A stretch of 64,000 bases of DNA from Candidatus Woesearchaeota archaeon. GTDB taxonomy: Archaea > Nanobdellota > Nanobdellia > Woesearchaeales > UBA10216. Positions 3,223 to 59,111 of this stretch are shown here, one piece after another. The position numbers and the translations under genes are program-made. The stretch spans positions 97,017 through 161,016 of the forward strand of contig JACPCV010000005.1 in the NCBI GenBank assembly GCA_016184345.1, written 5' to 3'. Within the stretch, counting starts at the first letter, position 1. The number at the start of each line of letters is the position of its first letter. The notes under the pieces are model-generated. The model did not search any database. It was given only the letters and a program-made list of their open reading frames with translations, and was not told where the DNA came from.

Positions 3223-3639
3223 ATGCCAGCAAGAGTGCAAAAAATGAAAAAGGGGCAAACATTCTCAACCGATGCCATAGTGGCTGTTGTGATGTTCGTT
3301 ATAGCTGTGATAATGCTTTACTACCTCTCCGGGCCAGCTACTACAAATAAGCAGTCTGAAAAGCTGCAGTCAGAGGCAGAGAAGCTGCCGGCAACACTCA
3401 GCTCGCAGCAGAACCTAAGCTCTATTTTCATACAGGGCTCAAGAATTGACGAGCAAAAGCTCAGCGAAGCCATAAACCTGAACTATGACAACCTCAAAAG
3501 CCTGCTCGGAGTGGGATCAGACTTCTGCATATACCTTGAAGATGAGAATGGCAACATCGTGCCGATGGAAGGGAAAGTAGGCATTGGCAGCCCGCTTGCC
3601 AACTTCAGCGGCAAAGGCTGCAATGAAACGTTACAATAG
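3223..3639 (+). CDS. Pilin-like / pilus-associated protein
   Basis: MPARVQKMKKGQ|TFSTDAIVAVVMFVIAVIML. A gatttaaaaaag box lies about 20 nt upstream. C-terminal block is paralogous to 1451-1930. Confidence 0.65.
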   Translation: MPARVQKMKKGQTFSTDAIVAVVMFVIAVIMLYYLSGPATTNKQSEKLQSEAEKLPATLSSQQNLSSIFIQGSRIDEQKLSEAINLNYDNLKSLLGVGSDFCIYLEDENGNIVPMEGKVGIGSPLANFSGKGCNETLQ

Positions 3640-3655
3640 GGCAGAACCGGCAAAA

Positions 3656-4174
3656 ATGCCACACCAAAGACTGTGCAATGGCAAAAAGGCCCAGTACCTT
3701 ACCATTGACGCTTTTATTGCATCAATGATAGTGGCAGTATCCCTTGTCATAGTCCTTGCTGCCAGGACAACCCTGCCTTACACTTCACAGTCAGAGGCTG
3801 TGTCAAAAGGCCTTGCTGAATCACTGTCGCAGGTGAAGCTCAGCGAACTCAACAACCCCCTTGTCATCAACATGTCAAGAAACGGCACAATAACAAATCT
3901 GGACAACACAATACTCCAGCAGGCGGCTGAGTTTTATTTCATCGGGAACAGGCACTACGCTTTTGAGCTGCTCAGGAATGTCAGCCAGACACTCATACCA
4001 AAGCAGTACAGCTTTGACGTCATAGTAAACAACGACCTGCTTTACAACAGGACAATAAAAACAGAGAACTCCAGCAGCGTGCTCGTGTCATCAAAGAAGC
4101 TTGTGTTTGGCGTTGTCAACAGGACAGCCCTTGTTTACGGCCCCACAATAGCTGAAGTCAGGCTCTGGCAATAA
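3656..4174 (+). CDS. Pilin-like / pilus-associated protein
   Basis: MPHQRLCNGKKAQ|YLTIDAFIASMIVAVSLVIVLAA. An alternative ATG at 3623 is possible. The stop codon lies inside the palindromic element at 4167-4202. Confidence 0.6.
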   Translation: MPHQRLCNGKKAQYLTIDAFIASMIVAVSLVIVLAARTTLPYTSQSEAVSKGLAESLSQVKLSELNNPLVINMSRNGTITNLDNTILQQAAEFYFIGNRHYAFELLRNVSQTLIPKQYSFDVIVNNDLLYNRTIKTENSSSVLVSSKKLVFGVVNRTALVYGPTIAEVRLWQ

Positions 4175-4202
4175 GGGGCTGCACCCCCTTATCAACCCCC
4201 GC
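4167..4202. repeat. 34-36-nt palindromic element, copy 1 (ggcaataagggg-ctgca-cccccttatcaacccccgc)
   Basis: Reverse complement of the consensus GGGGTTGATAAGGGG-N-CCCCTTATTGCC, which is also seen at 15626-15715, 54029-54062 and 57146-57177. It contains the TAA stop of ORF 3656-4174. Confidence 0.85.
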
Positions 4203-4206
4203 TAAA

Positions 4207-5370
4207 ATGAAAAAAACACTCATTCGCAACAAAAGAGGAATTTTCTTCACGTCAATAGCCATACTAATCTCAGCGGTGCTCGTGCTTACATTTGGCACGC
4301 CGGCCAGCGTAACGACAAAGGAGCAAATCCCGCTGACACAGGCAAAAGCAGACATGGCAAATGCGCAGGCGCGCGACCTCAAATACAGCTACCTGCCCCA
4401 GTCACTTTACGTCTCAACCTACAGCGCCCTCTACGCCATGTCAGAGTACATGCGGCTAAGGGGCGGCTACTTCCAGGGAGCTGATGCCGACCAGAAATTC
4501 AACGCAACGCTGAAAGAGGTTATGATTAACGGCACCATATGCTGCGGCCTGGCAGGCCACCTTCCCCCATGCGATTCTGATTCCCTGGCTGACGTGAATA
4601 ACCCAGCCATCCATAAAGGGGCTGATGACTGCCTCGGCAAAGCCATAATGAAAGACAGGAACTTCACCAAGCGGCTTAAGGACATGGAAAACGCTTCCTT
4701 CACTGCCTTCAGGATAAACACGACGTTCAACAAGGACTATAATAACATGGTAATCCAGCTGTTCCAGGACAACCAGACCGGGCCCTGGCAAATCGGCGTT
4801 AACATAAGCGTGAACTACTCAATAACAGCCGGTGATGTCATGATAAACAACTCTGAAAACGTAAGCGTCATATTCGGCATAGAGGGAATACCAGACCCGC
4901 TGTACGCAGTGCAAAGCCAGCAAACGCCCCAGGACGGCAGTATTACGTACACCAACTACTTTAACGCCACGAACATTACAAACTGGAACATATCAGCGTT
5001 CTACCACGAGATAGAGTGGCGCCTCTACAGGCACGAGCCAAACGGCTCAAGCTTCCTCAACAGGTTCTACGGAAGGGATGAGCGCTCGCCATGCTGCGGC
5101 GTTGAGAGCCTGATAAACCCAGCGGACATGGGCACGGTCAACGGGGCATTGGAGAAGCCGTACGTTGACTGGTGCTACTACGGCAGAAACAACCGCTGCA
5201 CCACAGCCCAGACAGGAGCCATGTGGAACGTCACATGCGTCACGGCAGCCGTTGACGGCGAAAAGTTCTTCAAATACGCCATTGACACGTTCCACGCAAC
5301 GCAGTACAACATAACCAATTACCTATATGACCTGCCCCCATCGACATGCCCAGAGATACCTTTCCCGTGA
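4207..5370 (+). CDS. Large secreted/anchored pilus-cluster protein, Cys-rich, many N-glycosylation sequons
   Basis: N-terminus MKKTLIRNKRG|IFFTSIAILISAVLVLTF. More than 15 NxS/T sequons (for example NATNITNWNIS). Multiple Cys pairs. Confidence 0.65.
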   Translation: MKKTLIRNKRGIFFTSIAILISAVLVLTFGTPASVTTKEQIPLTQAKADMANAQARDLKYSYLPQSLYVSTYSALYAMSEYMRLRGGYFQGADADQKFNATLKEVMINGTICCGLAGHLPPCDSDSLADVNNPAIHKGADDCLGKAIMKDRNFTKRLKDMENASFTAFRINTTFNKDYNNMVIQLFQDNQTGPWQIGVNISVNYSITAGDVMINNSENVSVIFGIEGIPDPLYAVQSQQTPQDGSITYTNYFNATNITNWNISAFYHEIEWRLYRHEPNGSSFLNRFYGRDERSPCCGVESLINPADMGTVNGALEKPYVDWCYYGRNNRCTTAQTGAMWNVTCVTAAVDGEKFFKYAIDTFHATQYNITNYLYDLPPSTCPEIPFP

Positions 5371-5476: not shown

Positions 5477-5492
5477 TTCTTAAAAAGGTTAA

Positions 5493-6320
5493 ATGATAAA
5501 GAAAACATTCACAGTTGCAAAGAATACCGCGGCATTCTTCATTGCTGCAGTAAACGCGTTCAACCCGTTTGCTTACGGCGGCATCACGCAAAAGTCGCTG
5601 CAGGCAGTCATTATGCAGCTGCTTTACCTACTGCTGATTGTTACCCTGGCAATGGCTGCATTAACAATCCCTTCACTGGCATCGGTAGGAAGCAAAAGCC
5701 AGCTTCCCCTTGACAAGTTCTCAAATCTCACCTTGAAAGCGGAAATAGCCACGAAAGCACCAATTGAATCAGAACTCTTCTGGCTTGGCAACGCAAAGGT
5801 CCTTGTCAACACGACAGCAGATGCGGCAGCAACAGGCAAATATGACTTTGTGCTCACCAGCACTGAGCTAAGGAGCAGGCCGTTCCCCTGCCTCTTCAGG
5901 CAGGAGCTTTGCAGCATTCTGGGAATAAAGCACAAGGCAGTGCCAATCAAAGAGCTTGACCTTGCCCAGAGGGCACAAAAAAACAGGGCAGCGCTCCAGG
6001 CTTTCATCCTGCTGCTCCTGCCTGGCCTTATAATCCTGCTGTTCCTGTCAATGGTCGTCAAGTACGTCGCAGTTTCAGCAGCAGCTGCGCTCATAGGCTT
6101 TATTATCCTTAAGATAGCAAGGAAGGACACCGGCCTTTTTGACGCCCTTAAGATAGCATTTTACGCTGCAAACGCGCTTGTAATCCTGGACGCTGCGCTC
6201 TTCCTGCTCAGGCACACAGGCGCTGAAATACCAAGCTTCATTCCCCTGGCGGCGTACCTTGTCCTAATCATAGCCGCAGTCATGGCGAACGAGCAAAGGC
6301 TTTCCGACAGCATGATTTAA
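5493..6320 (+). CDS. Polytopic membrane protein of unknown function (end of pilin cluster)
   Basis: 275-aa ORF with several long hydrophobic segments. No recognisable motif. Confidence 0.55.
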   Translation: MIKKTFTVAKNTAAFFIAAVNAFNPFAYGGITQKSLQAVIMQLLYLLLIVTLAMAALTIPSLASVGSKSQLPLDKFSNLTLKAEIATKAPIESELFWLGNAKVLVNTTADAAATGKYDFVLTSTELRSRPFPCLFRQELCSILGIKHKAVPIKELDLAQRAQKNRAALQAFILLLLPGLIILLFLSMVVKYVAVSAAAALIGFIILKIARKDTGLFDALKIAFYAANALVILDAALFLLRHTGAEIPSFIPLAAYLVLIIAAVMANEQRLSDSMI

Positions 6321-6349
6321 AAAAAGCACACAAAACCTGCCTTTGCAAG

Positions 6350-7339
6350 ATGAAAGAGCGATTAGTGTGCCTTGGAATTGAAAGCACAGCCCACACTTTC
6401 GGGGTCGGCATCGCTACTACTGGTAAGACTGGCGGCCGTATCCTTGCCAACGTCATCAAGCAGTTCACAACCAGGAAAGGCGGCATAATACCTGCAGAGG
6501 CAGCAGAGCACCACGTTGACATCTGTGATGTTGCTATAACTGAGGCGTTAGCCGCAGCTGCAATTACGCTGAAAGACGTTGATATTGTTTCATTCTCTCA
6601 GGGACCGGGCATAGGCAACTGCCTTAGAGTTGGAGCGGCAGCAGCTCGCACACTGTCTCTTGCCCACAAAAAGCCCCTTGTTGGCGTTAACCACTGCATC
6701 TCACATCTTGAGATAGGCAAATTACTGACTGCAGCCAAAGACCCGGTGCTGCTGTACGTCTCAGGCGCAAACACGCAAGTCATTGCTTTTGAAACTGGGA
6801 AGTACCGCATCTTTGGGGAAACGCTTGACATTGGGGTTGGCAACATGCTTGACGTTTTTGCGAGGCACATCGGCATAGGATTCCCGGGAGGGCCGCGGAT
6901 TATGCGGCTTGCAACAGCCGGCAAGAGATACATAGAACTCCCTTACGTTGTAAAGGGGATGGACGTGAGCTTTGGCGGCATACTCACGAACATCAAGCGC
7001 AAATATGACAGCGGGGATTACAGAAAGGAAGACCTGTGCTACTCACTTCAGGAAACAGTCTTTGCAATGCTTGTTGAAACAGCCGAAAGGGCCCTTGCCC
7101 ACACCGGAAAAAGTGAGCTTCTCCTCGGCGGAGGGGTGGCATGCAACACCCGCCTTCAGGAAATGTGCAGGGCAATGTGCGAGGAAAGGGGAGCCAAGCT
7201 GTTTGTTCCGGAAAGGCAGTTCCTCGTTGACAACGGGGCAATGATTGCGTGGCTAGGCATCCTTGAATACCTCAAAGGCACAAGGACACAAGTTGAAAAG
7301 TCAGAGATACTGCCGTACTGGAGGACGGATGAGGCTTAA
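6350..7339 (+). CDS. kae1: tRNA N6-adenosine threonylcarbamoyltransferase Kae1
   Basis: CLGIESTAHTFGVGI, NHCISHLEIG (metal-binding His pair), LLLGGGVACN, VDNGAMIAW. It is stand-alone, with no Bud32 fusion. Confidence 0.9.
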   Translation: MKERLVCLGIESTAHTFGVGIATTGKTGGRILANVIKQFTTRKGGIIPAEAAEHHVDICDVAITEALAAAAITLKDVDIVSFSQGPGIGNCLRVGAAAARTLSLAHKKPLVGVNHCISHLEIGKLLTAAKDPVLLYVSGANTQVIAFETGKYRIFGETLDIGVGNMLDVFARHIGIGFPGGPRIMRLATAGKRYIELPYVVKGMDVSFGGILTNIKRKYDSGDYRKEDLCYSLQETVFAMLVETAERALAHTGKSELLLGGGVACNTRLQEMCRAMCEERGAKLFVPERQFLVDNGAMIAWLGILEYLKGTRTQVEKSEILPYWRTDEA

Positions 7340-7417
7340 CTCACAGAAACAGTCGCAGACTCGATTACTCGCTTAAGGTCACCGGTGAAGATTTTACTTG
7401 CCTTTATAATTTCAATA

Positions 7418-7792
7418 TTAAGCAACTACCGGCACAGGAATAGGCAGTTTCTTCTCAACGATAGTGTTTTCATTCTTCCCTGGAATGGAGAGTTTAATCC
7501 ATACTATGGCATAATCTGCCCTCTTGCTAACAGTTATTTCTGCGCTTTTGAGTTCAGCTAGGTGCTCTTTTTGCACACCAACGTGATTAAGGAACTCCGA
7601 GGCATAAACCAATTCAATGCCAACAATGTTGCTGTTTTTGTCAAAATCAAAACTGAAGTCAGAAAGCTCTGCACTTCCTTCAACCTTCTTCCCTCTTCTG
7701 TGTATGTTCAATATGTCGGATTTCTCATTATAATCCCACACAAAATATCTGTCCTGGCCAGCTGTCATGGTTTCCATTACATCATTTATCAT
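7418..7792 (-). CDS. DUF2283-like small protein (putative antitoxin partner)
   Basis: YFVWDYNEKSDILNIHRR...FDFDKNSNIVGIELVYASEFL follows the DUF2283 pattern. It lies immediately downstream of 7795-8127. Confidence 0.45.
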   Translation of the reverse strand: MINDVMETMTAGQDRYFVWDYNEKSDILNIHRRGKKVEGSAELSDFSFDFDKNSNIVGIELVYASEFLNHVGVQKEHLAELKSAEITVSKRADYAIVWIKLSIPGKNENTIVEKKLPIPVPVVA

Positions 7793-10987: not shown

Positions 10988-11001
10988 ATGAACAGACATT
11001 A

Positions 11002-11115
11002 AAACGCCCCCACTGGGAATCCGCGCCCTGATGGGCTTGGAACCCAGTGGATGGATGGCTAAACGCCCCCACTGGGTGACTTCGCCTTTCGGCTCAGGAC
11101 CCATTGGTGGCTAAA
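11002..11115 (-). repeat. Two extra tandem copies of the tRNA-Arg 3' end (T-stem plus acceptor plus trailer)
   Basis: aaacgcccccactggg occurs at 11002-11017, 11061-11076 and 11113-11128; the last copy belongs to the tRNA at 11116-11248. Copies 2 and 3 have T-stem-like helices closing non-tRNA loops. Confidence 0.8.
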
Positions 11116-11368: not shown

Positions 11369-11469
11369 AATATAGAGGACTTTGAATAACCCCTATTTAT
11401 CACTTTTGTTCAAAGTCCTCTAAGACAACTTTGACACTTTACAGATAGATAATCAAAGTTGTCTATATT
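11369..11469. repeat. ~100-bp double-hairpin repeat 'X', copy 1
   Basis: Near-identical to the reverse complement of 30779-30920, except for a 43-nt insertion in that copy and a different second loop. Stems are agaggactttgaa/ttcaaagtcctct and agacaactttga/tcaaagttgtct. Confidence 0.9.
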
Positions 11470-14092: not shown

Positions 14093-15568
14093 TCACTGCA
14101 TTCTGAACTTTCCGGCATAATATTTCGCCATGATGAGGCCAATCTTGTGGACGTCAGTTATCTGCTGCGAAACAAGCCACTTGAGTATGCGCGCCTTTTC
14201 CTGGAGGTCCTTACTAATCTCGTCAGGGCTCATTCCCGTGTAGAGGCCAAGCGTTTCAAGCACCCTGCCCGGAGAGGCAATCTGGACAAGCTTGTCCTTC
14301 ATCACATCCAGCTGGATGAGGGCCTTTGCATCGCCATTCGCCTGTATCTCTGCAAACTGGAGCGTCCTCCTGAAGCCTGTTCGCCTGTTCCTGTTCTGCA
14401 CGAGTATGGCCGAAAGGGAGGAAAGCACTGTCCTGGGAACCTCAATCGGCGGGTTGGTGAGCCTTGTTATCGTTTCCTCTGCATTGTTGGCGTGCAAAGT
14501 CCCGTAAACGCTGTGCCCTGTGTGCATTGCCTCGAAAAGGACCTCAGCCTCGGCTTTTCTCCTGATTTCACCCATTATGATGCGGTCAGGCCTCATCCTG
14601 AGCGAGTTCACGACAAGGTCAAGCATGCTGACCTCGCCCTTGCCTTCGGGGTTGGGAAGCCTTGTCGCGAGGGGAACCCAGTGCAGGGTGTTGGGCAGGG
14701 TCAGCTCGCGAGTGTCCTCTATTGAAATTATCCTCTGGTTTGGCGGGAAGAAGTTTGCAATTGCGTTCAGGGCAGAGGTCTTGCCTGAGCCGGTGCCGCC
14801 TGCTATTATCATTGAAAGCTCCTGCTGCACGCAAAGCCACACCCAGGCAGCAGTCTCAGCATCCATCGTCTTTGTCAGGATAAGGTCGGTGATTGACCAC
14901 GGCTTTTCAGAGAACTTCCTTATCGTGATTGTATTGCCCTTGCTTGAAATCGGGCTTAAAGTGGCATTCACCCTGTCTCCTGTAAGCAGGTTGGCGTCCA
15001 TCAGGGGCTGGAGCAGCGTGATTTCCTTGCCCACGTCCCTTCCGATTGTCGTGGCGTAATGCCTTATCCTTGCCTCGTTTGGTATGGTAATGTTCGTCTT
15101 GAGCCAGCCGTGCTTCCTGTGGTAAACCCATACGGGCTCCTGCGAGTTGTTAATGACGATTTCTTCCAGGTTTTTGTCCCTCAGCAGGATTTCTATGTTG
15201 CCCAGGCCGACGTTCTGCTGCATGACATGGCTCACAAGAAGGTTGGTTGTGTCATAGTCTATGCCGGGGAAGTACTTCCTGATAAGCAGCCTGATCTCAC
15301 CTTCAAACTTTTTCTTGATGTCAACGCCGCTTTCCTCGCCAAGCTGGATTGTGCCGATAACAACCTTGGAAAGGAACTCCTCCCTGAGCTTGTTGAGAAT
15401 CCTAAGCGTGGCGTCGCTTATGTTAAGGAACGAGATGGTGTATATGGGCACAGCTTCCTGCTCTGTGGTGAAAATCCTCACATCTACAACGACGCCGTTA
15501 ATGTCCAGCTTGTACGAGTCCACGAGCTGGCGCACTCCTTCAAAGCCTGCCGGTCCTGCCGTTGCCAT
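14093..15568 (-). CDS. Type II/IV secretion (FlaI/TadA/VirB11-family) ATPase
   Basis: Walker A IIAGGTGSGKTSALNA; RIISIEDTRELTL; Walker B/His box IIMGEIR...GHSVYGTLHA. Confidence 0.9.
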   Translation of the reverse strand: MATAGPAGFEGVRQLVDSYKLDINGVVVDVRIFTTEQEAVPIYTISFLNISDATLRILNKLREEFLSKVVIGTIQLGEESGVDIKKKFEGEIRLLIRKYFPGIDYDTTNLLVSHVMQQNVGLGNIEILLRDKNLEEIVINNSQEPVWVYHRKHGWLKTNITIPNEARIRHYATTIGRDVGKEITLLQPLMDANLLTGDRVNATLSPISSKGNTITIRKFSEKPWSITDLILTKTMDAETAAWVWLCVQQELSMIIAGGTGSGKTSALNAIANFFPPNQRIISIEDTRELTLPNTLHWVPLATRLPNPEGKGEVSMLDLVVNSLRMRPDRIIMGEIRRKAEAEVLFEAMHTGHSVYGTLHANNAEETITRLTNPPIEVPRTVLSSLSAILVQNRNRRTGFRRTLQFAEIQANGDAKALIQLDVMKDKLVQIASPGRVLETLGLYTGMSPDEISKDLQEKARILKWLVSQQITDVHKIGLIMAKYYAGKFRMQ

Positions 15569-15625: not shown

Positions 15626-15715
15626 GGGTTGATAAGGCACAAGTCGTGCAAGCACGACTGTGCACAGTCGCCGCAAGGCGACTTGTGGCGGGAGCGAAGC
15701 GACTGCCCTTATTGC
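15626..15715. repeat. Long form of the palindromic element, with a twin-hairpin cassette nested in its loop
   Basis: The arms gggttgataagg (15626-15637) and cccttattgc (15706-15715) enclose cacaagtcg..cgactgtg and cacagtcg..cgacttgtg (15638-15687). It contains the stop codon of the 720-aa ORF. Confidence 0.85.
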
Positions 15716-17871
15716 TGTGGAAACTTCACAGTTGCCTTGCTAAGGCCCTTGAGCTCTTCAATCTTCTTCTCAATGTCATCTATTTCCTTATCAATGTTTT
15801 CAATGTCCTCATCACCATAACTGCCTGCTTCACCGGAATCATGCTCAACAGCTGCTGTTTCCTGCTGCGGAACGGCTTCCTCTTCGGCATCCGCAGTTTC
15901 AGGCAATGCGGCTCCTGTTCCTTCCGCTACTGCGGTTTCGGCACCTGCTGCGCCCTGCCTGCTATGCCAATCCAGCTCGCTGACAGGAACTTCCCTTGTC
16001 AGATGCAGAGGAGCCGGAAGCACATCCTTCTCAGGCTCGTACACTGGAGTAACATCAGAAGTGATTTTCTGGGCTGCTGTTGCAGGTGGCGGTTCGACCT
16101 GCTGCGCAATCGGGAGAAGCCCGATTTGCGCCTGCATGGCAGGGGCTTCTGACAGCAGTGCCTTGTAAAGGCGAAGCACTCTTTCCCTTACCCCTGACTT
16201 TTGCAGGGCAAAGCCCGGAGGCAGTGTGTTGTAAAGGGCCATAACACTTGAGTAGGCAGCATTGGCAGACTCAAAGTCTTTCCGCTTCACCTGGGCTTCG
16301 GCCTTGTCAAGAAGCTTCGTTATGTTTGAAATTGTTGAAGAGGAGCTGCTCGTTTCCACCTGCTTGGCTTTCTTCAGGTAAGCCTCGTAAGCCTGCACTA
16401 TCTGGTCCTGCAGCGTTGTTTCCTCGTGCAGGAAGCCCTTTGGCATTTTCAGGTAAAGCCGCTTGACCTTTTCGTACGCTGCCTCGGCTTCATCAAGCTC
16501 GCCCCTCGCAGTGTGAGAGTTCATGGCGCCAAGCAGTGTCGCGATTTCAGCAGACTTTGTCTTGAGCGTGCTGACCGATTCCTTTGTATAGATGGAGGTT
16601 ATTGCCGTGTGCAGCGGCACAATCTTCTCCTGCAAGGCAGCCTTCTCCTTGAGAAAACCTGCGGGAAGGCTGCTGTAAAGCTGCTTAACTTCCCTATATG
16701 CCTGGATTGCTGGCTCAATCTTGTAGTCCTTCAGCAGCTCCTGAATCTGGCTGATAAGCTCCCCCACCTGCCTGGCAGCCCTGTCAAACTTCTGCCTGAT
16801 GGCTTTCTCCCTTTCCCTCGCGAGGGTGCTGTAAAAAGCAAGCACCTTTTCCTGAATCTCTTTTTTTTCATCAATAAATCCAGGAGGCAGGGTTTCATAC
16901 TCGTGCTTGATAGCCTGGTAATACGATTCTGCAGTCTCAAACTCTCCCTTTCTCAGGAGCCTGTTGCCGGCATTCAGGAGCAGGGCTATCCTCTCCCCGG
17001 CCCTTTTGAGCTTTTCAAGGTTGGCCTGGTCAACGTTTTTGGCCAGGTCCTTGTTAAGCTTGACAAGGTCATCCTCCATCTGCCTCTTTTTCTCAATGAA
17101 CTCCTTTGCAAGGTTCTGGTGGGCAAACTTCAGCTTCTCGTAAAGGTCATTTGCTTCCTCAATCTTGCCTTCCTGCATGAGCTCGTACGCCTTCCCAAGC
17201 AGGTCCTTATAGTCCTTGGTCGCCTGGATGGACTGCAAAGTTGTAATCTGGTCGTAAAGCTTGTTCAGCTCTTCAATGGCAAGCCTTGCCTGCTCGTAAA
17301 GACGCGTGTAGGAAGAGCTGGCATAGTCAAACTTGCCTTCGCTGGCATGAGAAGCTGCCTCCTGCAGCTGTTCATCAAGCGACCTCATAAGCTCGTTAAG
17401 CCCGGCCTTTTTTTGCGGCACAATGTCAGCCTGGGTAACAAGCCTGTCATGCACTCCCTTAAGCTTTGAGAGCAGGTTGTAATAAGTTTGTTTCAGCAGG
17501 CCAAACTCGCCAGCTGTCTTTTCTTCACCGGCTTTTGACAGGATATCCCGCATGCTGCCAAGCTCAGTCTTCAGTTCAGAGAACTCAACGCCTTCGGCAG
17601 GCAAGCCTGATTCATGGCCGAGCTGCCTTGCCTTTGGGATTTCAGGGACAGCCACGTAAGGAGTGGTGAACTTGTACTTTACAATTACAAGGCCATCCTC
17701 TTCAAGAAAGTTTGCCCAGGCCTCAACCGTCTGCAAGCTGGCGCCAAGCTCCTTGGCAGCAGCTGCCATGGCTACCTCTTTAGACCTCCTTACAAGGTCA
17801 AGAAGCCTGTCAGCGCCTGTCTTTACCTCTTCAGGCATAGGCTCTTCTGATTCCTCAGCTTTTCCAACCAT
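15709..17871 (-). CDS. 720-aa repeat protein (~74-aa helical repeats with LPxGF motif), co-oriented with the pilus ATPase
   Basis: At least four clear repeats: Y.TLPPGFIDEKKEIQEKV, YSSLPAGFLKEKAALQEKI, YLKMPKGFLHEETTLQDQI, YNTLPPGFALQKSGVRERV. The N-terminus (LDLVRRSKEVAMAAAAKELGASLQTVEAWANFLEEDGLV) looks like a winged helix. The C-terminus is acidic. Confidence 0.7.
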   Translation of the reverse strand: MVGKAEESEEPMPEEVKTGADRLLDLVRRSKEVAMAAAAKELGASLQTVEAWANFLEEDGLVIVKYKFTTPYVAVPEIPKARQLGHESGLPAEGVEFSELKTELGSMRDILSKAGEEKTAGEFGLLKQTYYNLLSKLKGVHDRLVTQADIVPQKKAGLNELMRSLDEQLQEAASHASEGKFDYASSSYTRLYEQARLAIEELNKLYDQITTLQSIQATKDYKDLLGKAYELMQEGKIEEANDLYEKLKFAHQNLAKEFIEKKRQMEDDLVKLNKDLAKNVDQANLEKLKRAGERIALLLNAGNRLLRKGEFETAESYYQAIKHEYETLPPGFIDEKKEIQEKVLAFYSTLAREREKAIRQKFDRAARQVGELISQIQELLKDYKIEPAIQAYREVKQLYSSLPAGFLKEKAALQEKIVPLHTAITSIYTKESVSTLKTKSAEIATLLGAMNSHTARGELDEAEAAYEKVKRLYLKMPKGFLHEETTLQDQIVQAYEAYLKKAKQVETSSSSSTISNITKLLDKAEAQVKRKDFESANAAYSSVMALYNTLPPGFALQKSGVRERVLRLYKALLSEAPAMQAQIGLLPIAQQVEPPPATAAQKITSDVTPVYEPEKDVLPAPLHLTREVPVSELDWHSRQGAAGAETAVAEGTGAALPETADAEEEAVPQQETAAVEHDSGEAGSYGDEDIENIDKEIDDIEKKIEELKGLSKATVKFPQQ

Positions 17872-30778: not shown

Positions 30779-30920
30779 ATATAGACAACTTTGATTATCC
30801 CATAGTTATTTGTCAAAGTTGCCTCAGCGTATCGCTGAGGGATGTCAGCTATCAGCTGACATTGTCTTAGAGGACTTTGAACAAAAGTGATAAATAGGGG
30901 TTATTCAAAGTCCTCTATAT
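30779..30920. repeat. Double-hairpin repeat 'X', copy 2 (inverted), carrying a 40-nt twin-hairpin insertion with TTG duplication
   Basis: Reverse complement of 11369-11469. The extra segment at 30822-30864 is cctcagcg-tat-cgctgagg ga tgtcagct-atc-agctgaca, flanked by ttg at 30819-30821 and 30862-30864. Confidence 0.9.
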
Positions 30921-53252: not shown

Positions 53253-53381
53253 ATGGAAGAGAACGACGACTTTTACGAGTCATTTGAGACTGGCCTTGAC
53301 GACGATGAAATCAGCCCTGAAGAGGAAGGCTTCATCAAGGGCTTCATGGATGACATGTTCAGCGATGAAGAAGGCCCTTAA
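53253..53381 (+). CDS. Small acidic peptide (42 aa); not in the supplied ORF track
   Basis: Strong RBS aaggaggtga 6-15 nt upstream. MEENDDFYESFETGLDDDEISPEEEGFIKGFMDDMFSDEEGP. The 3' end overlaps the convergent MtaB-like gene by 23 nt. Confidence 0.35.
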   Translation: MEENDDFYESFETGLDDDEISPEEEGFIKGFMDDMFSDEEGP

Positions 53382-54645
53382 GGTGTGTTACGGCCGCACC
53401 AGTGACTTCAACCTCTACAAACTTTCCCAGCATGCCCTCGCTGCCCCTGATGACAACAGGCTTGTAGGCAAAATTTCTTGCTACGACCGTGCCAGGCTCC
53501 TTCCCCTTCTCATCAACAACAGCCCTGCCCTTCCAGCCAACCCAGCCAAGGTTCCTGTCAAGCGCAATCTTTTTTGCCAATGCGTGCAGTTTCCTGCTCC
53601 TTTCCATCACAGTTTCATCAGGCAGCCTTTCCATTTTTGCAGCTGCAGTGCCGGGCCTGGGCCAGAACCTGGAAACGTTCACGACATCAGGCTTTATCTC
53701 TTCAATGACAGCCATAGTTTCCCCAAACTGCCTGTCTGTCTCGATTGGAAAGCCGCAGATTATGTCGGTTGCTATCGTAATTTGCGGTAGCTGCTTTCTA
53801 AATTCCGCAACGATTTTTTTGAAAGTTTCAACTTTATACCCGCGCTTCATGGCCGCCAGGACGCTGTTGCTGCCTGACTGAAGCGGGATGTGCAGGAACT
53901 TGAAAACCTTGTCATGCTTGAACGCCTCAATAAGAGACTGCAGCAGGTGGTTCGCAAGGGTCGGGTTCATCATCCCAACACGGATTTGGAAATCGCCATC
54001 AATGCCGCATAGCTGCTGCAACAGCTGCGGCAATAAGGGGGTACCCCTTATCAACCCCCGCCTATCAAGCCCGTAAGTGCCGGTATCCTGGCTTGTCAGC
54101 CAAACCTCCCTGCAGCCTGCCTTAACAGATTCCTCAGCGCTGTTGCGGATTGTCCCGATGAGGTAAGAGAGCGTGTTGCCCCTGGCTGCTTTTGTAATGC
54201 AAAACGAGCATGAACCGAGACAGCCCTCGTTAATCTGGATGATGCTCACCGCGCTGTTAAAGCTCAGCTTCGGCAGCGATGCCTTGTCAACGCTGCTGCC
54301 ACCGACAGCAAGATTAGCCTTCCCTTCAACAACATCAACAATCTCGTTTATTTTATGAGTTCCGATTACGGCTGCAGCTGGTGATAATAGCCGTACGCTT
54401 TCGGTTTGCGCCTCTGACATGCAGCCTGCAATCACAAGGCGCTTGCTGCAATCTTGCAAGTCATGAATCCTTCTCCTGATTTTCTCCTCAGTCGGGCCTT
54501 TTACCGTGCATGTGTTGACAATTATGGCATCAGCATCCTCAGAAGCTGCGACCACCTGATGCCCACCCTTGTTGAGCAGCCCGGCCATTATCTCGGAATC
54601 ATTCACATTGGCAGAGCAGCCGTAAGTTTCTATGCAGACTTTCAT
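53359..54645 (-). CDS. MiaB/MtaB-like tRNA methylthiotransferase (radical SAM plus TRAM)
   Basis: MKVCIETYGCSANVNDSE, INEGCLGSCSFCITK (CxxxCxxC), C-terminal TRAM-like region. It contains palindromic element copy 3 in frame (RRGLIRGTPLLP). Confidence 0.9.
   Translation of the reverse strand: MKVCIETYGCSANVNDSEIMAGLLNKGGHQVVAASEDADAIIVNTCTVKGPTEEKIRRRIHDLQDCSKRLVIAGCMSEAQTESVRLLSPAAAVIGTHKINEIVDVVEGKANLAVGGSSVDKASLPKLSFNSAVSIIQINEGCLGSCSFCITKAARGNTLSYLIGTIRNSAEESVKAGCREVWLTSQDTGTYGLDRRGLIRGTPLLPQLLQQLCGIDGDFQIRVGMMNPTLANHLLQSLIEAFKHDKVFKFLHIPLQSGSNSVLAAMKRGYKVETFKKIVAEFRKQLPQITIATDIICGFPIETDRQFGETMAVIEEIKPDVVNVSRFWPRPGTAAAKMERLPDETVMERSRKLHALAKKIALDRNLGWVGWKGRAVVDEKGKEPGTVVARNFAYKPVVIRGSEGMLGKFVEVEVTGAAVTHLKGLLHR
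54029..54062. repeat. Palindromic element, copy 3, inside the MtaB-like CDS
   Basis: ggcaataaggggg-ta-ccccttatcaacccccgcc. Read on the minus strand it encodes GGLIRGTPLLP with no stop. Confidence 0.85.
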
Positions 54646-57059: not shown

Positions 57060-57107
57060 ACCTTCTTTGTCCTGCAACAGATTTATAAATCGTTCTCAAA
57101 TCTCGTA

Positions 57108-57177
57108 GGGTTGATAAGGGCGCGCTGCCTCATCGCCCCCGTCGTGGGGTTGATAAGGGGTGGAGCCCCTTATTGCC
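57108..57177. repeat. Palindromic element: half copy (57108-57120) plus full copy 4 (57146-57177), abutting the tRNA-Ser 5' end
   Basis: gggttgataaggg is the half copy. ggggttgataagggg-tggag-ccccttattgcc is the full copy, and its last three nt are the first nt of tRNA-Ser. Confidence 0.85.
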
Positions 57178-57308
57178 GGGATCGCATAACCTGGTATTGC
57201 GCAAGCCTGGAAACAGAAGCGCGATAGCTTGTTCCCGCAAGGGTGTCTGGGTTCAAAACACGGCGACGCAAAAGAGTCGTCGCTGCTGTGAAAGTCCCAG
57301 TCCCGGCG
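57175..57308 (+). tRNA. tRNA-Ser (GGA) with a 13-nt anticodon-loop intron and a 37-nt T-loop insertion
   Basis: Acceptor GCCGGGA/TCCCGGC, discriminator G. Anticodon arm CAAGC-CTGGAA[13 nt]A-GCTTG. Long variable arm TTCCCGCAAGGGTGT. T-arm CTGGG-TTCAAAA[57259-57295]CCCAG. A T-tract follows. Confidence 0.8.
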
Positions 57309-57365
57309 CTTTTTATTTATGTGGTGGAAAACATTTTTAAATTGCTTCAAGGCAAGGCAAAAGTC

Positions 57366-59111
57366 ATGAATGCTGGCGACGTGCACCCGCTCGGGACAAA
57401 AGCGAGGGTTCTCCTGTCAAGCGTTTTCGGCCCATACGCCCAGGATGATGAGTATGGAAGCAGGAAAATAAACCCGATGGAGCTTTACCACAACCAGGTA
57501 ACAAGGGTGCAGGGGCCTTTCTCAATCAGGATGTTCCACCCCTCGTTCGGGTTAAGGATGATTCAGGACAACATCAGCGCGCCATGCACAATACTGGATT
57601 TCCCGACGCTTGACAGGTTTATTGGCGAAATAAAAAGCAACGAGTATGACATAGTCGGGATAACCTCAATCCTGGTAAATATTGGCAAGGTGAAGAAGAT
57701 GTGCGAGGAGATACGGAAATGCCTGCCAAACGCAGCCATCGTGCTGGGGGGGCACCTTGCCAACAAGCCAGGCATAGAAACCCTTGTCGACGCCGATTAT
57801 TTTGTAAAGGGAGAAGGCGTAAGATGGTTCCGCAATTTCCTTAGCGAAGATGTGAATGCACCATTGAATCACTCCATTGAATTCGCACAGTTCGGGCTCA
57901 GAGTCATGGGACTACAGCTTAAGCGGCCGAAGAACAGCTGTGCAATCCTGATGCCATCCCTTGGTTGTCCTGTCGGCTGCAATTTCTGCGCAACATCAGC
58001 TAAGTTCGGCGGCAAAGGCAAATTCATTAATTTCTTTGAGACAGGAGACGCCCTTTTTTCAGAAATGTGCAGGATAGAGAAGGCTCTTGGCAACTCATAT
58101 TTTTTCATATTGGATGAGAATTTTTTATTGCACAGGACAAGGGCATTGCGGCTGCTGGAACTAATGCAGCAAAACAACAAAAGCTGGATATTAAGCGTAT
58201 TCAGCTCGGCCCGCGTTTTGAAATCTTACACGATAGAGCAGCTTGTCGGGCTGGGAATAACCTGGGTTTGGATGGGCCTGGAGGGGAAAGGCAGCCAGTA
58301 TGCGAAGCTGAACGGCATAGATACCAAGCAGCTTGTAAATGAGCTGCAGGAAAACGGAATCAGGGTCCTTGGATCCACAATAATCGGCCTTGAGGAGCAC
58401 ACGCCTGAAAACATTGATGAGGCAATAGACTGGGCTGTGAGCCACAACACAGCACTCCACCAATTTATGCTCTACACTCCGCTTCCGGGCACTGCACTGT
58501 TCGAGCTGCATTCGAAAGACGGAAGCATACTTTCGGAACAGGAGCATAACCCGGCAGACATCCACGGGCAATTCAGATTCAATTACAAGCACAAAAACAT
58601 CCATAACGGCCAGGAAGCTGAATTTATCCTTCGGGCATTCAAGCGCGATTTTGAAGTAAACGGCCCAAGTGTCATCCGAACGATAAGAGTGACCTTGCAA
58701 GGCTGGCAAAAGCACAAGAACCACCCTGATGAGAGAATCAGGAAAAGGGTTGAGCTGGAAGCGAGGGGCCTAAAGCATACGCTGGCAGGCGCAGTCTGGG
58801 GAGCGAAGCAGTGGTATAAGTACGATAAGAAAGACGCTGCAATGACTGATAAGCTAAACAAGCTTTTGAACGATTTGTACGCTGAATTTGGCCTCCGCAC
58901 CAGGCTGCTGGCACCAATAATAGGGCGGTACGTTCATCGAATGATTAAAAAAGAAGCGCAGCGGCTGGAAAATGGCTGGACGTACGAGCCTGGAACGATA
59001 TACCTGAAAAATGCGCAGGCACTGGCATTGAAATCCGGGCAAGCCAAGGAGTTGCAGCCCGCCCCTGCCTTATCACCTTCTTCAAGCATTAGCGCCGCCC
59101 GCACAGCCTAA
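57366..59111 (+). CDS. B12-binding-domain radical SAM protein
   Basis: ATG at 57366, downstream of the tRNA. VGITSILVNIGKVKKMCEEIRK...IVLGGHLA (B12-binding-like) and PSLGCPVGCNFCA (CxxxCxxC). Confidence 0.85.
   Translation: MNAGDVHPLGTKARVLLSSVFGPYAQDDEYGSRKINPMELYHNQVTRVQGPFSIRMFHPSFGLRMIQDNISAPCTILDFPTLDRFIGEIKSNEYDIVGITSILVNIGKVKKMCEEIRKCLPNAAIVLGGHLANKPGIETLVDADYFVKGEGVRWFRNFLSEDVNAPLNHSIEFAQFGLRVMGLQLKRPKNSCAILMPSLGCPVGCNFCATSAKFGGKGKFINFFETGDALFSEMCRIEKALGNSYFFILDENFLLHRTRALRLLELMQQNNKSWILSVFSSARVLKSYTIEQLVGLGITWVWMGLEGKGSQYAKLNGIDTKQLVNELQENGIRVLGSTIIGLEEHTPENIDEAIDWAVSHNTALHQFMLYTPLPGTALFELHSKDGSILSEQEHNPADIHGQFRFNYKHKNIHNGQEAEFILRAFKRDFEVNGPSVIRTIRVTLQGWQKHKNHPDERIRKRVELEARGLKHTLAGAVWGAKQWYKYDKKDAAMTDKLNKLLNDLYAEFGLRTRLLAPIIGRYVHRMIKKEAQRLENGWTYEPGTIYLKNAQALALKSGQAKELQPAPALSPSSSISAARTA

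Follow-up and report, generated by a model that had tools for sequence, protein, structure and literature searches.

A short palindromic repeat of Woesearchaeota that is probably a non-autonomous mobile element

A palindromic repeat with a core of about 30 nt recurs in a stretch of core chromosome from a Woesearchaeota archaeon (64,000 nt in length, hereafter the window), and it is probably a non-autonomous mobile DNA element, similar in shape to the REP and RPE repeats of bacteria. The element has a hairpin, is polymorphic for presence and absence at orthologous sites, is accompanied by target duplications, forms arrays, has been inserted in frame into genes and is spread across phyla. It would have been multiplied by target-primed or template-switch copying and not by a cut-and-paste transposase, and presumably has no function for its host.

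The repeat unit and its copies in the window

The conserved unit consists of a short 5′ tag, GGGTTGATAAGGG, a variable apical stem and loop, and CCCTTAT(T), in this order. In the window it appears as GGGTTGATAAGGG-loop-CCCTTAT(TGCC), with three intact copies, one long form and one decayed copy. An earlier sequence-only reading had placed copies at 4167, 15626, 54029, 57108 and 57146, and a sequence search of the window found all of them. Three have intact hairpins: copy A (4167..4200, minus strand; 51.4 bits in a covariance-model scan) lies between two co-directional pilin-like genes of the plus strand, copy B (54029..54059, minus strand; 55.4 bits) lies sense and in frame within an MtaB-like gene, and the 3′ end of copy C (57146..57174, plus strand; 50.7 bits) falls exactly at nucleotide +1 of a tRNA-Ser gene. 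Copy C had been read as extending to 57177, but nucleotides 57175–57177 (GCC) are nucleotides 1–3 of the tRNA. Copy D (15626..15715, plus strand) is a long form of ~90 nt, in which the arms GGGTTGATAAGG and CCCTTATTGC surround three internal hairpins; its predicted fold has −45.6 kcal/mol (z −3.6), and its internal module recurs at another locus in contig L056. Copy E (57108..57137, plus strand), GGGTTGATAAGGGC gcgct GCCTCATCGCC, has two T-to-C changes in the 3′ arm; it was first taken for a half copy at 57108–57120, but is really a decayed, older full copy. Allowing up to two mismatches, the left arm has eight matches in the window against 1.27 expected, a number reached by none of 100 shuffles, and the right arm has three against 0.37 expected. 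When the window was scanned by the covariance model with filters off, exactly A, B and C emerged at 51–55 bits, and the rest was noise.

The core of 27–32 nt is predicted to fold into a hairpin of 11–13 bp with one bulged T, and the forward strand is predicted to fold better than its complement because of G·T/G·U wobble pairs and this bulge. Over 47 copies the top base pair of the apical stem covaries (GC 21, CG 13, AU 4, UA 3); 99% of the cells in this alignment are paired, and the observed covariation score was reached by none of 500 shuffles. The spacer between the arms is 3–9 nt, and up to 65 nt in copy D. The 5′ tag has variants such as AGTCG, GCGAG, AAGCTTGAG and CGTAG: cGTAG is found in copy E and in L005, L019 and L022, CGTCG in copy C and in L011, and GCGAG, TTGAG, GGGAG or AGTCG in other copies. 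Remote copies were gathered with patterns fixing most of both arms, so that this census is biased, and the conservation of the arms and of Y-R-C after CCCTTAT is partly imposed by the search. A wobble-preserving covariation in the 3′ arm (TTGC/TTAC/TCGC/TCAC) was withdrawn, since the search pattern forced Y-R there.

Copies within genes, at gene ends and beside tRNAs

Copy B is hosted by a gene for an MtaB/CDKAL1-like methylthiotransferase (53359..54645, minus strand), assigned by PF00919, PF04055 and named homologs. It is translated as RRGLIRGTPLLP and encodes GLIRGTPL. Five close MtaB alleles carry GL(I/M)(R/M)(G/D)(T/A)PL, and at this position six residues are missing from every other ortholog, over a range of 81% to 45% identity. 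The suggestion that the copy adds about 11 residues thus holds as to the insertion, which is evident from close orthologs lacking the peptide, but the net gain is six. Relative to the empty site, the filled site shows a small target deletion (−8 nt) in place of a duplication. In all five alleles the loop length and the open frame are kept and the peptide is evolving, which indicates that the copy is translated; moreover, although these alleles are only 76–82% identical in DNA, their arms do not differ even at synonymous sites. None of 100 bootstraps groups the filled alleles as a clade, and the tree does not separate repeated insertion from recombination because the eight-gene set is star-like and mosaic. 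Further in-frame copies are found in a Bud32 kinase, where, compared with solved structures of Bud32, 18 aa are inserted between the catalytic loop and the DFG motif, in two ORFs of L002 and L009, and upstream of TctA in an ORF of 144 aa that lacks annotation and is empty in the window and filled in L059. The analogy with RPE and REP is apt.

At gene ends, the TAA stop (4172–4174) of the ORF at 3584..4174 (plus strand) lies in the distal arm of copy A, and that (15709–15711) of the ORF at 15709..17871 (minus strand) in the 3′ arm of copy D, both within CAATAA. The element had been supposed to supply the last Gln codon and the stop of both ORFs. For copy D this is confirmed by empty orthologous sites, which end in ..FPNSSL* and ..FPQHDLL*. 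For copy A it is contradicted: of the 51 homologs found, nearly all keep the ..WQ* end, among them all five at 40–46% identity, and an outgroup without the element ends in tggcagtaaGG. The distal arm of copy A, GGCAATAA, is therefore largely native and derived from the target. Site D is filled in the window, has a short form in L015 and is empty in L059 and L060. At site A, L056 contains five same-sense GGGTTGATAAGG motifs within 200 nt, of which only the one adjacent to the gene end is intact, L057 contains two, and three orthologous hairpins have differing but compensated apical stems. The arms are kept at both sites between genomes whose neighbouring proteins are 59–87% identical. ORF ends are enriched, as expected from the two window copies: at least seven distinct sites have an ORF stop inside the element, nearly always in one relative orientation.

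Adjacency to tRNA genes, noted beforehand for copy C, is general in the family. The neighbour of copy C is a genuine tRNA-Ser(GGA) gene (57175..57308, plus strand), called by ARAGORN on the spliced sequence; on the same strand it contains an anticodon-loop intron of 13 nt (57214–57226) and a T-loop insert of 37 nt (57258–57294). The unspliced gene gives no call by ARAGORN or Rfam, and an intron-less ortholog in L023 is called by ARAGORN without splicing. A TATA-like box, TTTATAAAT (57082..57090, plus strand), lies 17 nt upstream of copy E, and its position implies that the hairpins would be transcribed within the 5′ leader of the pre-tRNA. The same arrangement of box, hairpin and tRNA is found in L011, L019, L022, L023, L005 and L001. 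Copy E precedes copy C in one leader, whose orthologs are in L011, L019, L022 and L023; each of these five leaders has at least one copy starting ~13–17 nt past the box, and their content differs among the relatives, as do tRNA intron positions at this locus. A separate TATA-like box is located upstream of TTGATAA in tRNA leaders. Many other copies adjoin tRNA nucleotide +1 on its 5′ side, and in three unrelated contigs from metagenomes the canonical 37/38 intron of tRNA-Thr starts with a copy in reverse orientation. Copies in tRNA leaders and in MtaB have the sense orientation, whereas those at gene ends and in tRNA-Thr introns, Bud32 and the 144-aa ORF are antisense.

Insertion signatures and distribution

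Several copies are flanked by direct repeats of 9–24 nt that are locus-specific and different at every locus, against ~6 matching bases on average in control comparisons. The target duplication is 21 nt in L053, 19–23 nt in L029, 20 nt in L008/L041 (a tRNA 3′ end), 17–18 nt in L014 (the 3′ end of tRNA-Arg), 14–15 nt in L027 (across the 5′ end of tRNA-Ala), 14–15 nt in L054 and 9 nt (GCCGTTGCC) in the 144-aa ORF of L059; in L043 and L007 ORF ends were duplicated and have since diverged. The downstream repeat mostly starts within the TGC after CCCTTAT, and the upstream repeat lies 5–75 nt from the hairpin. Most tRNA-adjacent copies have no recognisable target duplication. Filled and empty orthologous sites exist for MtaB, site D and the 144-aa ORF, and the tRNA-Ser leader varies. 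Insertion hot spots hold arrays of decayed half copies, and tandem copies occur in L001 and L029.

Database scans detected the element in many Woesearchaeota and in Iainarchaeota, ANME-1/Methanosarcinales and Atribacteria. The copies of the methane-cycling archaea include near-identical ones, as do those of Atribacteria, and 22–23 bases are common to the copies of Woesearchaeota, ANME-1 and Atribacteria. The sequence-only reading had known of no archaeal precedent; indeed, no archaeal counterpart of bacterial REP or RPE, that is, no such 30-nt repeat, was found in the literature searched, but the element is not specific to archaea, as Atribacteria carry it. Single MAGs have copies on multiple contigs (L001 and L015; L005, L007 and L011), and the neighbours are always housekeeping genes, such as those for PolD DP2, IleRS, RFC, YchF, gyrase B, LysRS and Kae1. 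In L004, one copy abuts a CRISPR repeat. No transposase, integrase, reverse transcriptase or Y1 transposase was found among 30 ORFs scanned against Pfam, 20 of which belong to the 62 ORFs of at least 110 aa in the window. Likewise, IMG/VR yielded no viral copy of the element, Rfam no family at gathering thresholds or permissive E-values, and a literature search with repeat sequence strings only unrelated primers.

Known systems, rival explanations and mode of spread

With REP/REPIN sequences the element shares the imperfect palindrome of 20–40 nt with a G+C-rich stem, conserved bulged arms and a variable loop, the dispersal of clustered copies in the core chromosome, mostly directly downstream of genes, occasional intragenic in-frame copies, and GTAG or CGTC beside the stem of some copies (PMC3733652). 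It differs from them in being present in Archaea (DPANN, ANME-1 and Methanosarcinales) and Atribacteria, in its strong association with tRNA genes, in its varying tag, in the lack of a RAYT among the 30 ORFs scanned, and in flanking repeats of 9–24 nt, whereas single-strand peel-and-paste insertion makes no target-site duplication. Like the RPE of Rickettsia, it persists in frame in conserved ORFs (MtaB, Bud32, the 144-aa ORF and those of L002 and L009), where it adds a peptide segment to housekeeping proteins, and tRNA-modification and other RNA-related genes are among its hosts (PMC10969869). RPEs, however, are Rickettsia-specific families of about 100–150 bp, whereas the present core is ~30 nt, adds 6–18 residues and occurs in both prokaryotic domains. 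Classical MITEs usually measure roughly 50–500 bp. The element resembles them, including those of Sulfolobus, Halobacterium and Haloquadratum, in its non-autonomous nature, inverted terminal sequences, multiple copies and target duplications, but is far shorter, has a variable 5′ end and no known parent insertion sequence, and shows duplications of 9–24 nt, or a deletion in MtaB, in place of a fixed duplication. MITEs as such are already known in archaea (PMC10969869, PMC11602168), with a high density in one Woesearchaeal genome (PMC11602168). As a mechanistic analogy and a descriptive match only, the closest signature is that of SINE-like or target-primed retroposons and template-switch insertions, which likewise combine a constant 3′ end and variable 5′ extent with variable duplications or small deletions, 3′ junction microhomology and an association with tRNA genes; the element differs from such retroposons in showing no poly(A)-like tail, and the 30 scanned ORFs include no reverse transcriptase. 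To our knowledge, no SINE-like or target-primed retroposon has been described in Archaea.

Other identities were considered and rejected. Integron attC sites have the boxes R″/L″ and L′/R′ (RYYYAAC / GTTRRRY) and lie at gene-cassette ends beside intI; GTTGATA fits five of the seven positions of GTTRRRY, but the core of 27–32 nt compares with a palindrome of 55–140 nt, and the flanks are syntenic core genes, not cassettes. As an archaeal TATA box, TTGATAA would end 17–21 nt upstream of tRNA +1, which is too close, and its distance, which shifts with loop length, would vary too much; a bacterial −35/−10 promoter fits poorly. An intrinsic terminator lacks the T-run downstream (in Atribacteria it lies upstream), the 3′ arm has on inspection no GA or CUGA partner for a box C/D or K-turn, and the Rfam result speaks against a known RNA family. 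A dif/Xer or other double-stranded recombination site is incompatible with a spacer of 3–9 nt (up to 65 nt in copy D), since such sites have a fixed core. Casposase or Cas1-type integration was raised by the duplicated tRNA 3′ ends and the CRISPR-adjacent copy, and was dropped since the duplications vary in length; casposons make duplications of 14–15 bp.

Alternatively, the hairpin might be a cis-acting RNA or single-stranded DNA structure of the host that was recruited for a function, serving as a tRNA 5′ leader or as a stabiliser or terminator at mRNA 3′ ends or between cistrons, with dispersed copies arising by duplication of a useful module and conservation by purifying selection. The invariant arms beside compensating apical stems at orthologous sites, the copies kept near a TATA-like box in all five tRNA-Ser leaders, the hairpins placed exactly on the stop codon in one orientation at seven or more sites and the synonymous-site conservation in MtaB all agree with this, and bacterial REPs affect mRNA stability (PMC3733652). 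We nevertheless consider it unlikely: the element has no common RNA orientation and no Rfam match, empty orthologous sites are functional, decayed half copies at hot spots indicate turnover rather than maintenance, and some copies lie within conserved enzymes where a regulatory role is implausible. Mobilisation of single-stranded hairpin DNA by a domesticated IS200/IS605-like HUH tyrosine transposase (RAYT), as for strict REPs, is very improbable. Size, imperfect palindrome, bulged base, strand asymmetry and variable loop are REP-like, cGTAG or CGTCG stands directly 5′ of several stems, reminiscent of the GTAG/CGTC tags, and intragenic REPs are known (PMC3733652), but the 5′ tag varies, insertion of the IS200/IS605 type makes no duplications such as those of 9–24 nt seen here, and no Y1 transposase is among the 30 scanned ORFs. 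RAYT subclasses are reported only in Bacteria, and among 172 complete genomes of Archaea that were surveyed, only ordinary IS200 transposases turned up, with no RAYT subclass (PMC6006769). Hardly credible at all is an RNA-level, intron-like element cut from tRNAs and MtaB mRNA by the archaeal splicing endonuclease and spreading with tRNA introns, even with the copies that start tRNA-Thr introns and the intron positions that vary between close relatives. Where a bulge-helix-bulge motif would have two 3-nt bulges on either side of a 4-bp helix, the predicted stem is uninterrupted apart from a single bulged U, the MtaB alleles keep loop length and open frame with an evolving peptide, and the copies that stand at gene ends or in tRNA leaders lie outside introns.

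For the mobile element preferred here, copying and insertion fits better than a classical transposase, because the duplications are variable, the 3′ end is constant and the 5′ end is variable. Existing copies would act as templates for new ones, whose constant 3′ end would be joined to the target at a short GC or TGC microhomology, with a duplication of variable length (9–24 nt) or a small target deletion (−8 nt in MtaB) as the outcome. Sequences that resemble the distal arm or begin with GCC, such as tRNA 5′ ends, TAA-GG gene ends and older copies, would be targeted repeatedly, and repeated hits at one site would produce the half-copy arrays. Copies would then persist where they are harmless: between genes, in the 5′ leaders of tRNAs, which are cleaved off by RNase P, in their introns, which splicing removes, at gene ends, and within genes in one of the four stop-free frames. 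The remaining two frames (TGA TAA forward, TAA reverse) would be tolerable only at gene ends, where they create new C-termini. Against mobility stands that the 30 scanned ORFs include no mobilising enzyme. Re-insertion or gene conversion could account for the retention of the arms in MtaB and at sites A and D, but selection for a host function would do so equally well, and the 22–23 bases that Woesearchaeota, ANME-1 and Atribacteria have in common are not easily reconciled with a purely selfish element that has no common partner. A more specific scenario, which we put forward as speculation and judge unlikely, is that the family propagates as a single-stranded intermediate of RNA or DNA, which is primed on the target or enters it by template switching, with tRNA leaders cut by RNase P precisely at the 3′ end of the hairpin as source transcripts and transfer among DPANN, their likely archaeal hosts or partners (ANME-1 and Methanosarcinales) and Atribacteria. 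If true, Archaea would have a first example of a SINE-like, enzyme-borrowing retroposon or of a template-copied element.

Small palindromic repeats such as REP and RPE belong to the classic features of bacterial genomes and have remained poorly understood. The present element indicates that the ultra-small genomes of DPANN tolerate and keep gaining a 30-nt hairpin in essential t6A/ms2t6A tRNA-modification genes, and that their tRNA leaders and tRNA introns take it up likewise. It leads to errors in annotation: tRNAs with several introns are missed, ORFs are given false starts and C-termini are altered. The signature that its insertion leaves suggests a mobilisation route undescribed for prokaryotic miniature elements, and gene flow among DPANN, methane-cycling archaea and Atribacteria can be traced with the element as a marker.

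A hairpin repeat and its copies in the window

Read in one orientation, the element consists of (G)GGGTTGATAAGGG(G), a loop of 3–7 nt and (C)CCCTTATTGCC, and reading each of the four places given by the sequence-only reading confirmed that one and the same repeat is present there. Its recurrence in the window is far above chance expectation. Three copies are intact, copy A at 4167–4200 (-), copy B at 54029–54059 (-) and copy C at 57146–57174 (+), and these are the sole window matches (51–55 bits) of a covariance model trained on 20 copies and run with filters off. Copy D (15626–15715, +) is a long form in which both arms enclose ~65 nt, and what had been taken for a half copy is E, a full copy that has decayed (57108–57137). 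As a whole, the window is ordinary Woesearchaeota core chromosome, with genes for class I LysRS, ProRS, Kae1, gyrase B, a Hel308-like helicase, SRP54, DinB, and type IV pilus ATPase and platform proteins, whose nearest protein homologs are labelled Candidatus Woesearchaeota.

On the strand as written, the stem has 11–13 pairs, including G.U and U.G wobbles, and one bulged U; on the complementary strand A.C mismatches replace the wobbles, and folding is 5–11 kcal/mol weaker. When 47 copies were aligned to the model, pairing was found in 99% of cells and dropped to 40–65% in shifted registers. The innermost stem pair, which the search patterns left free, is GC in 21 of these copies, CG in 13, AU in 4 and UA in 3, and the observed covariation was reached by 0 of 500 shuffles. 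The hairpin is real and strand-biased.

The interior of copy D (~65 nt) folds into three small hairpins (-45.6 kcal/mol, z = -3.6). Two of its internal hairpins (CACAAGTCG..CGACTGTG and CACAGTCGCC..GGCGACTTGTG; window 15638–15687) recur at ~3075–3145 of L056 (L numbers denote loci in other genomes and metagenome contigs), a different locus in a different genome, where they adjoin a GGGTTGATAAGG arm. Because of this recurrence, the long form counts as a distinct member of the family and not as a single nested insertion. A second palindromic repeat, unrelated to the element, occurs at 11373–11422 and 30868–30917 as TAGAGGACTTTGAA(T/C)AA, 16 nt and TT(G/A)TTCAAAGTCCTCTA; complementarity between its 17-nt arms is 94%. 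The direct repeat cccagtgggggcgttt(t)a is found twice upstream of tRNA-Arg(CCG) (10988–11090, -), the proximal copy giving a TTTTAAT motif just 13–19 nt before the tRNA +1.

Copies within genes, at gene ends and beside tRNAs

Copy B lies in frame within an MtaB-like gene, and alignment of 31 orthologs bears out its reading as an insertion. Five close alleles, whose proteins are 78–100% identical among themselves, carry G-L-(I/M)-(R/M)-(G/D)-(T/A)-P-L, whereas in every other ortholog (81% to 45% identity) six residues are missing at this point and R-R-(A/T)-(N/D/S)-L-(P/S) is conserved there instead. In DNA, empty alleles read ..AGG GCA AAT TTA CCT CAG.. and filled ones ..CGG GGG TTG ATA AGG GGT ACC CCC TTA TTG CCG CAG.., so that ~26 nt were gained and ~8 nt lost, a small deletion standing in place of a target duplication. 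Flanks of the five filled alleles are only 76–81% identical, yet no synonymous third position differs in the arms; variation is confined to the loop, whose length is always kept, which argues that the segment is translated. The filled alleles are not monophyletic, and since the gene tree is star-like and mosaic, this fits both repeated insertion and recombination. Other in-frame copies occur in a Bud32 kinase, at a point where 18 residues are absent from solved Bud32 structures, in an ORF of 144 aa, unannotated and upstream of TctA (L059), and in two further ORFs.

At gene ends, the element overlies the stop codon of an opposite-strand ORF at no fewer than seven distinct sites; a single site has the other orientation. 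Four of its six reading frames are open, and stops occur in the remaining two as TGA TAA (forward) and TAA (reverse), which explains both the in-frame survivors and the gene-end copies. The proposal that the element supplies the stop codons at the ORF ends of copies A and D holds at site D and not at site A. Where site D is empty, the ORFs of relatives end ..FPNSSL* or ..FPQHDLL* and no hairpin precedes the next gene, whereas filled ones end on the element's CAA TAA (..FPQQ* in the window, ..PIRQ* in L015). At site A, ..WQ* is the C-terminus of nearly all 51 homologs of the 172-aa protein, among them 5 of 5 at 40–46% identity, the exceptions being one with another residue, one with an extra residue and one cut short. 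Given this conservation and an outgroup that lacks the element and reads tggcagtaaGGctc, the 'distal arm' GGCAATAAGG at site A is native gene sequence that resembles the element by chance or was chosen for its resemblance.

Neither ARAGORN nor Rfam found more than tRNA-Arg in the window, and the unspliced tRNA-Ser gene was missed. Downstream of copy C, the acceptor stem GCCGGGA/TCCCGGC, D arm, anticodon stem CAAGC/GCTTG, long variable arm and T stem CTGGG/CCCAG were recognized by hand, and ARAGORN called tRNA-Ser(GGA) at 57175–57308 (+) once inserts of 13 nt in the anticodon loop and 37 nt in the T loop had been deleted; the intron-less ortholog in L023 was called directly. Copy C therefore does abut a tRNA, as proposed, its hairpin ending at nucleotide -1, and the GCC formerly counted in the consensus is tRNA positions 1–3. 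A TATA-like box (57082–57090) lies 17 nt upstream of copy E, so the hairpins are probably transcribed as the tRNA 5′ leader and removed by RNase P. All five orthologous leaders (window, L011, L019, L022, L023) contain the element in differing arrangements.

The tRNA-Ser(GGA) genes of L019 (6545–6677, -) and L022 have introns at other positions (after the D arm; anticodon loop), and that of L023 (7639–7724, -) has none; intron positions thus shift among genomes whose genes are ~80% identical. L022 also carries a LAGLIDADG_3 ORF (254 aa; 14134–14898, -) upstream of its LysRS gene, absent from the syntenic region in the window and L019. In L019 (about 5487–6556), the final 12 nt of tRNA-Ser (CCAGTCCCGGCG) reappear ~1 kb downstream, enclosing two small ORFs (215 and 73 aa), and in L023 (about 7100–7640) they reappear once more past a hairpin-rich ~85-nt insert. 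This arrangement suggests that elements other than the hairpin repeat integrated one after another at the tRNA 3′ end. The mechanical ORF 57243..59111 (B12-binding radical SAM) has its GTG start within the tRNA-Ser gene; its true start is probably the ATG at 57366 (MNAGDVHPLG..), matching orthologs.

Elsewhere, copies stand directly 5′ of the tRNA +1 at tRNA-Ser(GGA) in L011 and L023 as in the window, at two tRNA-Ser(GCU) genes (L038, L042), and at a Ser(UGA)-like (L001), a long-arm (L005) and a CAT-anticodon tRNA (L018), the last three identified by our own sequence reading. Others occupy, in reverse orientation, the first bases of a canonical tRNA-Thr intron in three unrelated contigs (L046, L047, L055), or adjoin duplicated tRNA ends (L008/L041, L014, L027).

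Distribution and insertion signature

When one genome per species was scanned with an exact pattern, 18 loci matched, where ~0.5 would be expected by chance on our own estimate from pattern information and database size. The hosts are many Woesearchaeota MAGs, an Iainarchaeum, a Nanobdellati, two ANME-1, one Methanosarcinales and two Atribacteria-type MAGs. A slightly relaxed pattern matched 29 metagenome contigs, and a scan of viral contigs (IMG/VR) gave no copy. Since the patterns fixed most of both arms, conservation of the arms in remote hosts and of Y-R-C after CCCTTAT is partly imposed. In distant hosts the copies lie among housekeeping genes (PolD DP2, acetyl-CoA synthetase, adenine deaminase, RFC, YchF, YceD, IleRS), which marks them as repeats of the host chromosomes and not as parts of a plasmid or virus common to these organisms. 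The Atribacteria-type copies (L003, L006, L016, L052) sit within long, repeated, T-rich intergenic blocks, which also hold related hairpins (GGGGGTTATAAGGGGGG.., GGGGGTTATTAGGGGG..) and the conserved motif ..gaattcaatataataaatyttagagaaacaataatggtctatcctttcag... Next to a CRISPR repeat in an ANME-1 MAG (L004, about 4990–5270), the element's 3′ end overlaps the start of a 36–37 nt CRISPR-type repeat (GTTGCAAAAGCCGTCTACRAAAACAAGGATTGAAAC); two such repeats flank the hairpin-rich ~190-nt stretch holding the element, which may be either a leader or an oversized 'spacer'.

In a scripted search for direct repeats around each copy, locus-specific flanking duplications were well above controls: 21 nt in L053, 19–23 nt enclosing two tandem copies in L029, 20 nt in L008/L041, 17–18 nt in L014, 14–15 nt in both L027 and L054, and 9 nt (GCCGTTGCC) in L059, whose empty site is this window. 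Longer, diverged duplications in L043 and L007 comprise the ORF's last codons and stop. The downstream repeat starts within the TGC following CCCTTAT, which places the true 3′ end of the element at about CCCTTAT(T), with a junction overlap of 1–3 nt. The upstream repeat lies 5–75 nt from the hairpin, and 5′ of the hairpin only the last 5–10 nt are common to copies (AAGCTTGAG, GCGAG, AGTCG, CGTAG). At hot spots, older copies persist as isolated 5′ arms; in L056, a 200-nt stretch contains five GGGTTGATAAGG motifs of the same orientation, and the copy adjoining the gene end is the only intact one. The three orthologous site-A hairpins differ in their apical stems, with compensation, and turnover by re-insertion explains the site-A pattern better than point mutation.

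Nature of the family

The sequence-only observation is confirmed, and the reading of the copies as insertions is supported. Cut-and-paste transposases, casposases and IS200/IS605-type insertion were considered, and the element's junction features do not match their signatures. A constant 3′ end, variable 5′ extent, variable duplications or deletions and junction microhomology resemble what target-primed copying or replicative template switching would leave, and insertion may proceed by either. Among known systems, bacterial REPs are closest in shape and habits, being 20–40 nt long with stems of 5–13 bp and variable loops, and lying mostly downstream of genes, sometimes within them, with frequent GTAG or CGTC tags (PMC3733652); the element differs from them in its target duplications. 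Rickettsia RPEs are closest in in-frame persistence (PMC10969869). A survey of Archaea found Y1 transposases of the ordinary IS200 type only (PMC6006769), and MITEs are known in archaea, one Woesearchaeal genome reportedly having a very high MITE density (PMC10969869, PMC11602168). The literature searched yielded no description of the element's sequence or of a ~30-nt REP/RPE-like archaeal element, which is not proof of novelty.

Some copies, in tRNA leaders and at gene ends, may serve a host function, the main argument for which is the unexplained conservation of the arms at orthologous sites. Overall, the best description of the element is that of a new family of miniature palindromic mobile elements, one that crosses domains, has an atypical insertion signature and is strongly linked to tRNA genes.
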